In this document: positions 2,071-22,031 of the stretch, one piece after another
Layout of the letters: every line of letters begins with the position of its first letter
Position numbering within the stretch: position 1 is the first letter of the stretch
Made by a program: the position numbers and the translations under genes
Notes under the pieces: model-generated
What the model saw: the letters and a program-made list of their open reading frames with translations, nothing else
Told to the model about the DNA's origin: nothing
The model's database searches: none
Origin: a virus
Length of the DNA stretch: 24,666 nucleotides
Virus record (IMG/VR): IMGVR_UViG_3300025141_016572
Strand: one strand, 5' to 3'

Positions 2071-2817
2071 ATGAAGCTCAATACCAAAAACGGATTCGAT
2101 TTTGGCATCAACCTACTGGACGTCGAGGTCCCTGCTGCTCTTCGAGTCAAGGTCAAGACCGGCCTGGACTACATTGATGGCGCCTTCGGTGGCCGCGGTA
2201 TCACCCCCAGTTCCGCAGTGATGTTCACCGGCGGTCCTGGCGCGGGTAAGACAACCATGATGCTCCAGCTTTGCGAGTCGCTGGCTGGCCTCGGAAACAC
2301 CGTGGTCTTCAACACGGCAGAGGAAAGCCTCTTCCAGGTCAAGATGGTGGCTGAGCGGCTGAAGCTGACGACCGGCTTCGCGGTAGGTGAAGAGGACATG
2401 GTTCCTGCGCTCCTCGAGAAATGCGAAACCCTCCGGGCAGCCAACCCCGACAAGCCCTTCATCCTGGTGGTTGACAGCCTGCAGGCTGTCAACGACGGGA
2501 AGTGGGGAAAGGGCCAGACCAACGGTAAGTCCCCTGAGCGGGCGCTCGCCCAAATTACTGACTGGTGCAAGGAGACCAACTCCATCGCCATCGTCATCGG
2601 CCAGGTGGGTAAGGACGGGAAGTTCTCTGGAAAGAACGTCCTCAAGCACATGGTTGATGCCTTCATCGAGCTGACGGTTGACGATGACATCCGGTCGGAA
2701 TACTACGGTGTCCGAGTCCTGGAGACCACGAAGAACCGTTTCGGTGGGGCCGGCCACAAGTTCTACATGGACTTGCGGAAGACTGGTTTCCGGACGCTGG
2801 CCAAGGTGGCTGCCTAA
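2071..2817 (+). CDS. RecA-superfamily ATPase (KaiC/RadA/Sak4/DnaB-C-terminal-like), probably a recombination or annealing ATPase.
   Basis: Its motif GLDYIDGAFGGRGITPSSAVMFTGGPGAGKTTMMLQL matches the RadA/KaiC consensus (G..LD..LGGG...G....I.G.PG.GKT.L.LQ). Walker B is ILVVDSLQA. ATG 2071 is preferred over track GTG 2014 because of the GGGAGAGAAA RBS. A rho-independent terminator follows. Confidence 0.75.
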   Translation: MKLNTKNGFDFGINLLDVEVPAALRVKVKTGLDYIDGAFGGRGITPSSAVMFTGGPGAGKTTMMLQLCESLAGLGNTVVFNTAEESLFQVKMVAERLKLTTGFAVGEEDMVPALLEKCETLRAANPDKPFILVVDSLQAVNDGKWGKGQTNGKSPERALAQITDWCKETNSIAIVIGQVGKDGKFSGKNVLKHMVDAFIELTVDDDIRSEYYGVRVLETTKNRFGGAGHKFYMDLRKTGFRTLAKVAA

Positions 2818-2837
2818 CAACTAACCTCCTTCGAGTG

Positions 2838-2870
2838 GCGGTCCGGACTTTGTTCGGACCGCTCTCTTTT
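2838..2870 (+). terminator. Intrinsic terminator: stem GCGGTCCG/CGGACCGC (2838-2845 / 2855-2862), 9-nt loop, then TCTCTTTT.
   Basis: Read directly. It lies 21 nt after the TAA of the RecA-like gene. Confidence 0.7.
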
Positions 2871-2886
2871 AAGCGCTTTAAAGCAG

Positions 2887-2921
2887 CACCGGGTCGGGAC
2901 CATGAAGATCCCGACCCGGTG
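2887..2921 (-). terminator. 13-bp perfect hairpin CACCGGGTCGGGA / TCCCGACCCGGTG with a 9-nt loop. It is the likely terminator for the minus-strand MVP gene, convergent with the 2838-2870 terminator.
   Basis: Read directly. It lies 15 nt downstream (minus sense) of the MVP stop at 2937-2939. The flank is moderately U-rich on the minus strand. Confidence 0.55.
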
Positions 2922-2936
2922 GCAACTTCTTCTTAT

Positions 2937-20247: not shown

Positions 20248-20454
20248 ATGAGTAATGACTCACAAGGTGTTCTAGAGACGTGGGGCGAGATCAAAGCATT
20301 GGTTACTGAGGCCGAGATCGACGTGCTGAAAAATGCAAACGGTAATTCGGCTGCTGGTGTTAGAGCACGCCGCGCTTTAAGACTTTTGCGAAGCAAAACG
20401 TCTGGCTTGGTTAAGCTGACAATTTCTGAAGAGAAAGCTCGAAAAGACAGCTAA
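20248..20454 (+). CDS. Small basic, probably nucleic-acid-binding protein (68 aa). It includes AAGVRARRALRLLRSK.
   Basis: ATG 20248 with AGGAG 8 nt upstream. Followed by a strong hairpin terminator. Confidence 0.55.
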   Translation: MSNDSQGVLETWGEIKALVTEAEIDVLKNANGNSAAGVRARRALRLLRSKTSGLVKLTISEEKARKDS

Positions 20455-20458
20455 GACC

Positions 20459-20508
20459 CGAACAACAATATGCGAGAACCGGTCTTAGGGCCGGTTCTCG
20501 CGTTGTTC
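20459..20508. terminator. Bidirectional hairpin between convergent genes. Its core stem is CGAGAACCGG / CCGGTTCTCG (20473-20482 / 20491-20500), extended imperfectly to ~18 bp (GAACAAC...GTTGTTC). The stop codon of the minus-strand gene (20485-20487) lies in the loop.
   Basis: Read directly. It is flanked by the stop of gene 20248..20454 (+) and the 3' end of gene 20485..20676 (-). Confidence 0.65.
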
Positions 20509-20676
20509 ATTGGTGAAGGTTTCGAGTTTCGAGTCCTTCCGTAATTTTTCCAAAATCAGCTTTTCTAGTTGACAGATTCTCATTCTTGTCAACCCTAACT
20601 TATCACCGATTTCTTGCAGGGACTTGTCCCTCATTGACTTCTTTATTTGCTCTCGCGGAAACTTGGGTTTTTTCAT
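20485..20676 (-). CDS. Sigma70 region-4-like HTH protein (63 aa): MKKPKFPREQIKKSMRDKSLQEIGDKLGLTRMRICQLEKLILEKLRK...
   Basis: SLQEIGDKLGLTRMRICQLEKLILEKLRK matches sigma-70 region 4.2 (TLeEvg..lgvTReRIRQIEakALrKLR). Start at the internal ATG 20676 (AGGAttgtgaaaATG RBS on the minus strand) rather than track 20730. Confidence 0.6.
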   Translation of the reverse strand: MKKPKFPREQIKKSMRDKSLQEIGDKLGLTRMRICQLEKLILEKLRKDSKLETFTNEQRENRP

Positions 20677-20723
20677 TTTCACAATCCTGTTTATTATTGT
20701 GACTAAGGAGGCACATTTTTTCA

Positions 20724-22031
20724 ATGACAAAGCTAAATAAGAAGATCATAATCCTCGATACCAGTGTTCTTCTCTATGACAAGAAGTCGCTAGAGAACTT
20801 TCCCGGGTGTGACGTCATTCTACCTCTGGTCGTCTTGGACGAGCTGGATAGATTCAAAGATAAGTCAGGCCTCCTTGGAGAGAATGCACGATATATCAAT
20901 CGTCTTCTGGACGAGTTCCGAAAGCTAGGTCCTCTGCATTCAGGTGTAGATGTAGGAAACGAACAGACGGTAACCATACGTCTAGTTACTCCAGATGTGC
21001 CCAGAGACTTTCCTCTTGATCCTACCTATGGTGACAACAGGATACTGTTGGAAGCCCTCCAGATCAAAGCAGGGAACCCAGATCGCAATATCACAATTGT
21101 CTCAAAAGACATAAATCTTCGTGTCAAAAGTGACGCGTTAGAACTTCGGTCTGAGGATTACTACAGTGACTATATCGATCTACCTGAGGATCATTGGACC
21201 GGTGTTGAAACCATAACACCGAAAGGAAATGAAATTGATAATCTGTATCAATCCAAGTCGATCCCATATGAAAGTGATATGAGTCACAACTCGTTCATTG
21301 TTTTGAGGGAAAAGCAATCAAAGAAGTCAGCTTTATGTGTCTGGAATGCCATTGAAGACAAGCTTCATTTAGTGCCCGATCTCGATGTCAAGACCGGTGA
21401 TACATCGAGTTTTTCTGCCAAGAATAAGGAGCAGAAATTTGCGATGTGGGCACTTTTGAACAATCAGATTCCACTGGTCACAATGACCGGTCTTGCCGGC
21501 TCCGGAAAAACATTTATGGCATTGCTGTCAGGAATCAATCAGGTTCAGTCTGGAAGGTATGAAAGGATCGTAATCACAAGAAACATCCAGCCTGTCGGAA
21601 AAGAACTGGGTTTTCTTCCTGGAGACGCAAACGAAAAGATGCTTCCATGGATGTCACCGGCAATTGACAATCTCAGAAATCACTTTAAGGATCGTCGAAC
21701 GTTTGATTTGATGCATGTGAACGGACTGATTGAAATTGCTCCGATGTCATTCATTCGTGGCAGAACTTTCGCGAATGCGTTTATTGTCCTGGATGAAGCT
21801 CAAAATGCTTCGATTCATGAACTCAAAACTGTGATCACTCGTGTTGGTGAAGGCAGCAAGATTATTCTAATGGGTGACACAGATCAGATTGACACACCCT
21901 ACATCAATAAGAACACGAATGGGTTGAGCATCGTGGCAAAACGGATGAGGGAGTCTCTCCACACTGCACACATCCATCTGCCAGTTGGAATAAGATCAAC
22001 TATCGCCTCAGAGGCAAGTTACTTGCTCTAA
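20724..22031 (+). CDS. phoH: PhoH2-type protein with an N-terminal PIN domain fused to a PhoH-like P-loop ATPase (YlaK-like).
   Basis: PIN region: IIILDTSVLL ... PLVVLDELD ... acidic residues. PhoH motifs: Walker A GLAGSGKTFMAL, Walker B FIVLDEAQN, signature GDTDQID. The 435-aa length fits PIN-PhoH fusions. Strong RBS TAAGGAGG. Confidence 0.85.
   Translation: MTKLNKKIIILDTSVLLYDKKSLENFPGCDVILPLVVLDELDRFKDKSGLLGENARYINRLLDEFRKLGPLHSGVDVGNEQTVTIRLVTPDVPRDFPLDPTYGDNRILLEALQIKAGNPDRNITIVSKDINLRVKSDALELRSEDYYSDYIDLPEDHWTGVETITPKGNEIDNLYQSKSIPYESDMSHNSFIVLREKQSKKSALCVWNAIEDKLHLVPDLDVKTGDTSSFSAKNKEQKFAMWALLNNQIPLVTMTGLAGSGKTFMALLSGINQVQSGRYERIVITRNIQPVGKELGFLPGDANEKMLPWMSPAIDNLRNHFKDRRTFDLMHVNGLIEIAPMSFIRGRTFANAFIVLDEAQNASIHELKTVITRVGEGSKIILMGDTDQIDTPYINKNTNGLSIVAKRMRESLHTAHIHLPVGIRSTIASEASYLL

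Follow-up and report, generated by a model that had tools for sequence, protein, structure and literature searches.

The sequence analyzed here is IMG/VR virus record IMGVR_UViG_3300025141_016572, a complete metagenomic contig of 24,666 bp that we refer to as the window. The contig is a fragment of an uncultivated, abundant and probably marine jumbo phage, as argued below. It contains approximately 36 plausible open reading frames (ORFs), and between 5.7 and 22.7 kb nearly all of them are on the plus strand. At the center of this run are three adjacent genes encoding YeaH, SpoVR and PrkA. A preliminary description of positions 2071-22031 had grouped this triad with a RecA-like ATPase, a major vault protein (MVP), ClpP and PhoH2 as one auxiliary island of host-type stress genes for manipulating a nutrient-limited host. 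Profile searches upheld all of the homology calls (RadA/KaiC-type ATPase, MVP, ClpP-family protein, YeaH, SpoVR, PrkA and PhoH2). Further, many of the small ORFs interleaved with these genes, which had been called viral-type, have homologues in viral contigs.

The first gene of the triad encodes a YeaH/YhbH (DUF444) vWA protein (13433..14629, plus strand; Pfam, E = 6.5e-107). The DxSxS motif of its metal ion-dependent adhesion site (MIDAS) is at residues 226-230, and D226, S228 and S230 were invariant in 85/85 sequences. The best NCBIfam model was TIGR02877, YhbH of the sporulation type, with a score of 397 bits against a cut-off of 468. The second gene encodes a SpoVR-family protein (14611..15927, plus strand) that matched Pfam SpoVR at residues 9-376 (E = 2e-122) and scored 281 bits with the NCBIfam model, the cut-off of which is 679. 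Because the probable ATG of SpoVR at 14626 overlaps the stop codon of YeaH, translational coupling of the two genes is suggested. The third gene encodes a PrkA/YeaG AAA+ protein (plus strand) with an AAA_PrkA domain (residues 39-392, E = 4e-133) and a PrkA C-terminal domain (residues 395-647, E = 3.1e-76). Its ORF (15937..17907) has 656 codons, and the ATG at 15976, 13 codons into the ORF, yields a protein of 643 amino acids (gene 15976..17907); the homologues are 643-644 amino acids long. The Walker A motif GPVGAGKS occupies residues 131-138, and its G, P, V, G, K and S were invariant in 89/89 sequences. The score with NCBIfam PRK15455 was 384 bits, compared with an equivalog cut-off of 576. 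By its sequence, therefore, this PrkA is a divergent member of the family and not an equivalog.

We compared every ORF of the window with 82 viral PrkA loci using tblastn. The frequencies of upstream genes were determined in the 61 loci with at least 8 kb of sequence upstream, and those of downstream genes in the 50 loci where PrkA is followed by 9 kb or more (hereafter, informative loci). The order YeaH-SpoVR-PrkA on one strand was found in 80 of the 82 loci, and all 61 loci informative for the upstream side possessed both YeaH and SpoVR. The stop and start codons within the triad overlap or are closely spaced. Eleven informative loci hold the triad without any of the array neighbours described below. 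Their PrkA proteins form a cluster of their own (72-75% identity), nested among the syntenic groups. Because of these 11 loci, the triad behaves as a cassette, and the longer array with PhoH2 is a feature of a lineage. This distribution suggests that the cassette has moved between phage lineages. YeaH/SpoVR/PrkA is the only demonstrable multi-gene unit of the window and the sole one supported beyond this lineage.

The loci with the triad alone (the L012-L034 group, L202 and L203) have an entirely different gene context. In L202, the triad is accompanied by genes for a ligase, homing endonucleases, purB and an amidase, and the gene that follows PrkA encodes a 467-amino-acid protein of phrog_19967, which is not chaperonin-like. 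We also considered whether L202 and a bacterial MVP locus, L200, reside together on one contig of 166,287 bp. This was rejected, because their guanine-plus-cytosine (GC) contents of 0.32 and 0.73, respectively, identify them as different contigs.

In bacteria, the module is encoded by prkA-yhbH-spoVR, or by yeaG-yeaH with ycgB. Its genes belong to the sigma-S, NtrC and sporulation regulons, and they form a unit as judged by co-fitness and regulon membership. PrkA has also been reported to act as a kinase in Escherichia coli. YeaG is required for the adaptation of E. coli to sustained nitrogen starvation (PMC4664914). PrkA of Bacillus subtilis is an ATP-dependent protease, and the lysine of its Walker A motif (K108) is needed for activity and for sporulation (PMC9512850). 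The phage triad resembles the bacterial module in comprising the same three full-length families, with intact Walker A and MIDAS motifs, encoded by adjacent, co-directional genes. It differs in its order, which is YeaH-SpoVR-PrkA in the phage, whereas prkA comes first in bacteria. Further, all three phage proteins score below the NCBIfam equivalog cut-offs, and the phage array adds conserved GroEL-like and Hc1-like partners.

In the window, the triad is part of a longer array of co-directional, tightly packed genes in the order (ClpP-like)-DinG-like helicase-YeaH-SpoVR-PrkA-85-amino-acid ORF-GroEL-like-...-zinc-ribbon protein-Hc1-like. A DinG/XPD-type superfamily 2 helicase of 533 amino acids (11782..13383, plus strand; Pfam Helicase_C_2 and ResIII; phrog_2488, E = 9e-107) precedes YeaH. 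The helicase gene was found in 31 of the 61 informative loci and the ClpP-like gene in 10. On the other side of the triad, the start codon of an 85-amino-acid ORF (17907..18164, plus strand) overlaps the stop codon of PrkA. The helicase also matched the DinG model of type IV-A CRISPR (clustered regularly interspaced short palindromic repeats) systems in PADLOC over nearly its full length (E = 2e-65) and, weakly, NCBIfam Csf4 (E = 1.5e-4); there were no cas genes near the helicase gene.

The next gene encodes a GroEL/Cpn60-like protein of 388 amino acids (18121..19287, plus strand), which was recognized by its predicted fold and by its positional orthologues. The protein itself matched no Pfam, PHROG or NCBIfam profile, and a phmmer search of the Protein Data Bank found no match. 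An AlphaFold2 (AF2) model built with 23 homologues had a mean predicted local distance difference test (pLDDT) score of 86.4 and a predicted template modelling (pTM) score of 0.72. Foldseek searches with this model yielded 468 hits at E <= 0.001 (best E = 1.9e-13, probability 1.0), and all 50 top hits listed were group I chaperonins. The template modelling (TM) score reached 0.56, against GroES-bound conformers. An hhalign comparison of residues 146-293 with residues 163-317 of E. coli GroEL was weak (E = 0.013, probability 3.4%). However, genes in the same position after PrkA in more distantly related loci matched phrog_5725, "chaperonin groEL" (L033, E = 1.3e-21; L079, E = 1.1e-13), and the family profile of the window protein matched these orthologues as well. 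This profile matched 53 of 88 loci, and the gene was present in 33 of the 50 informative loci. The product of 18121..19287 is a cryptic, shortened chaperonin-like protein with a predicted group I fold. It shares this fold with the phage GroEL of phrog_5725, but it has 388 residues instead of approximately 540, escapes the sequence profiles, and appears to have GGSG in place of the GDGTT nucleotide loop (judged by eye, not by structural alignment). Because the protein is approximately 160 residues shorter than GroEL and carries this substitution, its foldase activity is uncertain.

The GroEL-like ORF and the ORF at 19022-19513 (plus strand) overlap by 266 nt as listed, and both have homologues in the relatives; the second ORF probably starts only after 19287. 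A 153-amino-acid protein with CxC...CxxC cysteines, possibly a zinc ribbon, is encoded by o19519 (19519..19980, plus strand). It matched no family, and it is among the most conserved members of the array (52 of 80 loci; 39 of the 50 informative loci). The array ends with the gene for an Hc1-type, histone H1-like DNA-binding protein of 84 amino acids (20200..20454, plus strand; Pfam Hc1, E = 6e-7, 29.7 bits against a cut-off of 23.5), which was found in 42 of 80 loci and in 32 of the 50 informative loci. In Chlamydia, proteins of the Hc1 family compact the nucleoid of the dormant cell form. A terminator-like hairpin with a 15-bp stem (20470..20503, plus strand) follows, and it would mark the end of the array.

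PhoH2 (20724..22031, plus strand) lies beyond this hairpin and is preceded by a promoter-like site (20670..20697). The protein combines a PIN RNase domain (PIN_4, residues 9-146, E = 5.7e-26) with a PhoH ATPase/RNA helicase domain (residues 231-419, E = 4.9e-52). It matched phrog_2765 across its full length (E = 1.6e-87) and NF053827 with 220 bits. D12 of the PIN domain and the Walker A and B motifs (GxAGxGKT and DEAQN) were invariant in 45/45 sequences. The combination of YeaH-SpoVR-PrkA with PhoH2 downstream recurs in viral metagenomes, namely in 39 of the 50 informative loci, and PhoH2 is missing from the sister group with the triad alone. The distance between PrkA and PhoH2 ranges from 2.8 to 9.3 kb. 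PhoH2 would thus constitute its own transcription unit, linked to the array only in one sub-lineage. The name PhoH2 derives from E. coli phoH, and the preliminary description had presented PhoH as a gene of phosphate starvation. The product here is a PIN RNase-RNA helicase, and nothing in the present data ties it to phosphate. Downstream of PhoH2, a small protein (22070..22414, plus strand) weakly matched the C-terminal domain of gp53-like tail fibres (PF21882, E = 8.5e-5, just under the cut-off) and the tail-fibre family phrog_1396 (E = 1.5e-4).

The ClpP-family serine protease at the upstream edge of the array (224 amino acids; 11070..11744, plus strand) matched Pfam CLP_protease with E = 7.3e-28, but the match is limited to positions 46-178 of the 182 in the profile. 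In place of the N-terminal region of ClpP, the protein has an unrelated extension of approximately 92 amino acids. Ser134 and His157 were invariant in 9/9 sequences, and the position of the catalytic Asp is occupied by D or E in the alignment. The protein scored 110 bits with NF045542, "head maturation protease, ClpP-related" (cut-off 120), compared with 74 bits for the best cellular ClpP model (cut-off 249), and it matched the head maturation protease family phrog_94 with E = 2.3e-41. In sequence, it resembles the head-maturation proteases of phages more than cellular ClpP. Because of these higher scores and the partial ClpP profile, "stress proteolysis", the role given to it in the preliminary description, is not the best label. 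Note that the gene lies in the window without adjoining capsid or portal genes.

The left part of the window (1-8.5 kb) is variable. It contains the gene for a RadA/Sms-type ATPase of the KaiC/RecA superfamily (248 amino acids from the ATG, 2071..2817, plus strand; the ORF opens with a GTG at 2014). The protein matched Pfam KaiC (E = 1.2e-11) and AAA_25, phrog_26214 (E = 1.7e-20), and TIGR00416, RadA/Sms (E = 2.6e-28), the last at model positions 73-277 of 454 only. The Walker A motif GGPGAGKT, the Walker B motif ILVVD and the KNRFG motif were read from the sequence, and the protein (248-267 amino acids) has neither the N-terminal zinc finger nor the C-terminal Lon-like domain. As judged from these motifs, it is a recombination ATPase domain with a function typical of phage replication, and its earlier listing as a stress gene was not sustained. 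Two GC-rich hairpins, one at 2835-2870 that is followed by a T-run on the plus strand and one at 2889-2922 on the minus strand, separate the RadA-like gene from the convergent MVP gene and are probable terminators. A scan of the viral contigs with a peptide pattern found no RadA-like gene, and a 73%-identical orthologue in L086 (5703-6449) was detected by tblastn only. The GC content at third codon positions (GC3) is 0.75 for the gene in the window and 0.54 for this orthologue, an unexplained shift in composition.

The MVP homologue is full length, at 883 amino acids (ORF 2937..5609, minus strand; gene 2937..5588, with the ATG at 5588). It matched MVP_shoulder (E = 8.9e-22) and Vault_3 (E = 2.5e-8), and phmmer aligned it with human and rat MVP (E = 2e-13). 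Its architecture comprises beta repeats at the N terminus, a shoulder of the SPFH-like type and a cap helix that spans approximately 136 residues. The AF2 model (pLDDT 66.6) has a helix at 664-799, and its N-terminal half is of low confidence (below 50 in several segments). The top 12 Foldseek hits were all vault structures (E = 4e-29 to 2e-22), and the R1-R7 repeats were matched with E = 4.5e-9. The identical protein (P0001) occurs on six contigs from four assemblies. There are more than 4,600 relatives, many of them on contigs of 250-370 kb; full-length vault proteins are thus common in large environmental phages. The nearest named cellular MVPs are those of high-GC Myxococcota (51% identity). 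In the window, the Rfam scan found no vault RNA, there was no tRNA-like partner for the SPFH/MVP gene, and the ORFs scanned with Pfam, which were all but a few small ones at the left and right ends, contained no TROVE or PARP domains (TEP1, PARP4).

A hydrophobic ORF of 86 amino acids (5725..5985, plus strand), which was called as a gene in four assemblies and matched no family, is divergent from MVP and co-directional with the next gene. That gene encodes a cyclic-phosphate-processing receiver (cREC) protein of 304 amino acids (ORF 5933..6904, gene 5990..6904, plus strand; Pfam cREC_REC, residues 20-106, profile positions 1-85 of 88, E = 1.3e-27; phrog_1479). The viral cREC homologues, at 28 loci, matched only N-terminal residues ~19-115, and these loci, which are unrelated in gene context, have no other gene of the window except for one weak o9004-like match. 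The C-terminal half of the protein (residues ~110-304), which is not found in other viral cREC proteins, has alpha/beta-hydrolase-like motifs by eye only. A 251-amino-acid ORF, o7724 (7724..8479, plus strand), has homologues near MVP in the closest MVP-bearing contigs: directly downstream of MVP in L001 (10677-11393) and L003 (1879-2595), and approximately 2 kb downstream in L004 (5996-6703). The o7724 family was the only recurring partner of MVP, with recurrence limited to the closest MVP loci; no recurrence of cREC was seen. The family occurs together with MVP in the four phage loci that have the closest MVPs, and its protein is a candidate for a partner or cargo of the vault.

The closest relative, the 318-kb contig L086, has a different arrangement in this part. 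Its RadA-like orthologue is followed after 10 bases by a homologue of o8476, and its MVP (77% identity) and an o7724-like gene are located approximately 60 kb away, at the end of the contig. Because the RadA-like gene abuts the o8476 homologue in L086, the 5.7-kb segment 2818-8475 of the window, which holds MVP, the small membrane ORF, cREC, two small ORFs and o7724, is an insertion or rearrangement relative to this contig. A repeat search found no direct or inverted repeats flanking the segment that would explain the insertion.

The left 7 kb of the window also contain a promoter-like motif, GTRGTATAATRG (12 nt, extended -10 type). A repeat search placed the motif in a 27-nt conserved element at 185..211, 1993..2019 and 6919..6945 (plus strand). 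A pattern search of the window found these three exact copies and one copy with one mismatch (1342..1353, plus strand); all are on the plus strand, intergenic and restricted to the left 7 kb. The element at 185..211 is upstream of the first small ORF, and that at 1993..2019 is directly upstream of the RadA-like gene. This element may represent a class of phage promoter.

The histories of these genes differ. GC3 amounts to 0.75 in the RadA-like gene and to 0.56 in MVP, compared with 0.38-0.53 in the core of the array, and MVP and PrkA matched disjoint sets of huge-phage genome records. A donor lineage shared by all of the genes is not apparent: in addition to the difference in GC3, MVP is nearest to Myxococcota, YeaH to the YhbH type and the ClpP-like protein to phage head-maturation proteases. 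Because their genomic contexts and GC3 differ from those of the array, the GTRGTATAATRG motif is confined to their part of the window and hairpins follow the RadA-like and MVP genes, the left genes appear to be individually acquired and individually expressed genes of the "moron" type. The apparent cluster thus consists of three layers with different histories, namely a conserved PrkA array, PhoH2, and left genes that were separately acquired. The preliminary interpretation is accordingly supported in part: it stands for the PrkA-centred array, to which PhoH2 is linked in one lineage, but not for MVP, cREC and the RadA-like gene, which are unlinked to it in the relatives. Because the theme is broad and was chosen post hoc, no p-value can be attached to the thematic clustering.

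We consider it probable, with moderate confidence, that the stretch is a composite of a phage growth-arrest array, a separate PhoH2 unit and independently acquired left genes. The triad would be the phage's own copy of the bacterial module for growth arrest and starvation. PrkA would work with the vWA protein YeaH and with SpoVR, probably assisted by the adjacent divergent chaperonin and likewise by the Hc1-like protein. By remodelling or degrading host proteins, such an array would keep a slow-growing or starved cell capable of sustaining a long infection by a jumbo phage. PhoH2, expressed from a transcription unit of its own, would have RNA as its substrate. The left genes would most likely serve DNA recombination and conflicts over NAD+/ADP-ribose or RNA ends rather than one programme.

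Several points weigh against this interpretation. Gene identities, intact catalytic motifs, viral origin, synteny and the insertion relative to L086 are shown here, whereas the transcription units, all biochemical roles during infection and the advantage under nutrient limitation are inferred. The activity of PrkA is disputed, since both a kinase and a protease have been proposed, and the roles of YeaH and SpoVR are, to our knowledge, unexplained even in bacteria. Joint work of the helicase, GroEL-like protein, Hc1-like protein and PrkA is not proven by their linkage, because conserved gene order is normal in phage genomes. The GroEL-like protein, which falls 160 residues short of GroEL and appears to lack the GDGTT loop, is possibly no foldase, and the ClpP-like protein could still act on host proteins, as has been proposed for jumbo phages (PMC7824862). 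The scan of the whole window for promoters found 26 sites, compared with 27.5 in shuffled sequence; because this is not above the shuffled level, the transcription units are deduced from one motif and the hairpins. Finally, a nutrient-limited host is an assumption.

A bolder form of the growth-arrest interpretation is that YeaH-SpoVR-PrkA-GroEL-like-...-Hc1-like is a dedicated operon with which a very abundant, uncultivated clade of ocean jumbo phages controls dormancy or growth arrest of the host, PrkA and the chaperonin resetting the proteome and the Hc1-type protein compacting the nucleoid. We regard this as possible but unlikely. If true, such a dormancy-control operon would provide a first handle on the enigmatic PrkA/YeaH/SpoVR system.

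The proposal that the whole 20-kb stretch is one auxiliary island, jointly reprogramming a nutrient-limited host through phosphate and nitrogen starvation, proteolysis and vault-based survival, draws on genes that are all real. The triad and PhoH2 lie within 10 kb of each other in the 39 informative loci mentioned above, further genes with a flavour of proteostasis or dormancy (GroEL-like, Hc1-like, HSP20) are present in or beside the stretch, and relatives derive from aquatic metagenomes, Tara Oceans included. Further, spoVR was reported as the most abundant "sporulation" auxiliary gene in an ocean virome (PMC8940887). However, relatives show no linkage of MVP, cREC or the RadA-like gene to the array, and compared with the closest of them, the window has the MVP/cREC segment as an insertion. 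Codon composition differs among the genes, which appear to have promoters and terminators of their own, and the triad occurs without the other members in the sister group and in isolated phages. On closer inspection, the ClpP and RecA-like labels are off the theme, and PhoH2 is an RNase-helicase with no demonstrated role in phosphate metabolism (PMC7824862). We therefore think it rather improbable that the stretch is a single island. Stress-sounding annotations in a phage contig do not by themselves make a functional island; here, comparison with relatives split one real unit from several independent passengers.

Counter-defence would give a different common purpose to some of the same genes. 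In this case, cREC and MVP would handle the NAD+/ADP-ribose or cyclic-phosphate products of abortive infection, PhoH2 would act on RNA, and the triad would override dormancy or growth arrest. For cREC domains, a role in processing cyclic ADP-ribose or 2',3'-cyclic phosphates has been predicted in the conflict systems of jumbo phages (PMC7824862), and the shoulder of the human vault binds NAD+ and ADP-ribose (PMC12280208; bioRxiv 10.64898/2026.05.01.722283). The G-(R/K)-P-K core of the keyhole loop of the vault is kept, as G-K-P-K, in the phage MVP, and K537 showed no variation among 42 prokaryotic and phage MVPs. In four independent assemblies of this phage, the MVP and cREC genes adjoin each other in divergent orientation. 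As a secondary reading, the phage MVP might form a vault-like shell that sequesters NAD+/ADP-ribose together with the neighbouring cREC enzyme. However, most other residues of the NAD pocket differ in a pairwise alignment, and the adjacency of MVP and cREC was observed in this phage only, six other MVP loci and the 28 cREC loci being without the partner. PADLOC returned generic P-loop and helicase hits only, and none on MVP, cREC, YeaH or SpoVR. Further, PrkA is not known from any experiment to take part in phage defence or counter-defence. We accordingly give counter-defence a low probability, and the composite of a growth-arrest array, a PhoH2 unit and acquired left genes remains our preferred interpretation.

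The genomic setting supports a viral origin. PrkA relatives with 63-84% identity were found at a minimum of 147 IMG/VR loci, on contigs of up to 361 kb. The nearest relatives are contigs of 318, 284 and 168 kb, which are collinear with the window from approximately 9.4 kb onwards. In the flanks of the syntenic group-A loci, ORFs matched tail-fibre, long-tail-fibre, baseplate-wedge and virion-structural families of PHROG. The 152-amino-acid protein o9866 (9866..10324, plus strand) belongs to a widespread phage family (138 viral loci), which borders the head/tail module in viral contigs of 30-50 kb; in L135, its homologue is accompanied by genes for a tape measure protein, a ClpP-type prohead protease and a portal. 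No rRNA, tRNA or housekeeping genes were present in the window, and its ORFs are short, dense and mostly without cellular homologues. Scans of the window found no tRNA and no credible Rfam family match, and megablast of the whole window against isolated phages gave no match. The MVP region was identical in four independent assemblies. Several homologues are labelled Tara Oceans, and other relatives come from further aquatic metagenomes. The marine setting that had been suggested for this contig is thus plausible; nutrient limitation of its host was assumed.

PrkA relatives (62-77% identity) were also found in bins of metagenome-assembled genomes (MAGs) labelled Bdellovibrionota, Halobacteriovorax, Luteolibacter and Anaerolineaceae. 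No donor lineage of PrkA emerged, as the best 120 homologues were all metagenomic and phage-like, and the genome scan gave scattered MAG bins. It is highly improbable that the contig is bacterial chromosome or a degraded prophage with these genes in their normal host place, as the MAG-binned PrkA relatives and the cellular MVP homologues in Myxococcota and on a 73%-GC bacterial contig could be taken to indicate, because the MAG labels are taxonomically scattered and at least one of the binned contigs (L204) has the phage synteny, the related contigs of 168-361 kb are viral, virion families flank the syntenic loci, the window has the gene content of a phage described above, and the bacterial MVP locus (L200; histidine-kinase, Usp and CofH neighbours) differs from that of the window. 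Two of five close PrkA matches in MAGs (L203 and L204) are labelled Bdellovibrionota/Halobacteriovorax, which may reflect mis-binning or hint at a host.

Every component has already been reported in phages. Phage-borne triads in large genomes are known from Thermus phages phiYS40 and TMA and from Ralstonia phage RsoM2USA, and the order in phiYS40 is YeaH-SpoVR-(X)-PrkA. However, these triads are only 28-32% identical to the present one, which suggests separate acquisitions. RsoM2USA keeps the bacterial gene order, unlike the present array, and neither phiYS40 nor RsoM2USA has PhoH2, a DinG-like helicase or a GroEL-like gene beside the triad. The lineage described here is uncultivated, comes from marine or aquatic settings and by far outnumbers the phiYS40/RsoM2USA type in metagenomes. 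In phiYS40 (L199, 4028-5878), a 616-amino-acid protein of phrog_31767 is encoded between SpoVR and PrkA and may be a lineage-specific partner of the triad.

A survey of jumbo phages described cREC, PIN-PhoH and a patchy, possibly host-directed ClpP (Iyer, Anantharaman, Krishnan, Burroughs, Aravind 2021; PMC7824862). Unlike the present work, it contains no mention of PrkA/SpoVR or vault proteins and no PrkA-centred array. MVP was previously reported in two human-gut phages (bioRxiv 10.1101/2023.11.10.566534). Like the viral and bacterial MVP homologues described so far (bioRxiv 10.1101/2023.11.10.566534; 10.1101/872010), the present protein is full length, with shoulder and cap helix, is nearest to bacterial MVPs and belongs to a tailed phage. 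It differs from the gut-phage MVPs in coming from a marine group of jumbo phages, in which relatives at 60-85% identity are numerous, and in having a cREC neighbour and the recurrent 251-amino-acid neighbour. Apart from the genome paper of RsoM2USA, which describes a jumbo phage with PrkA and SpoVR, our literature search yielded no publication that connects PrkA with jumbo, huge or mega-phages. Thus, a large marine clade with a conserved array of PrkA, chaperonin-like and Hc1-like genes appears to be undescribed in the literature searched.

PrkA/YeaH/SpoVR is among the most widespread starvation and sporulation modules of bacteria, and its mechanism is unsolved. Well over a hundred viral contigs carry the module, its catalytic motifs being invariant, and one large sub-lineage adds the chaperonin-like and Hc1-like genes. 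These findings suggest a dependence of large ocean phages on control over the growth-arrest machinery of their hosts. Further, the phage triad offers a compact, portable version of the PrkA system for experiments.

Other assemblies of this phage reach 2.3 kb past the left end of the window, where they hold genes for a small heat-shock protein (HSP20) and for a protein with a FeoA domain (L193, 7204-7656 and 8620-8880). These two genes, together with the cREC, DinG-like helicase, GroEL-like and Hc1-like genes of the window, were absent from the preliminary description.

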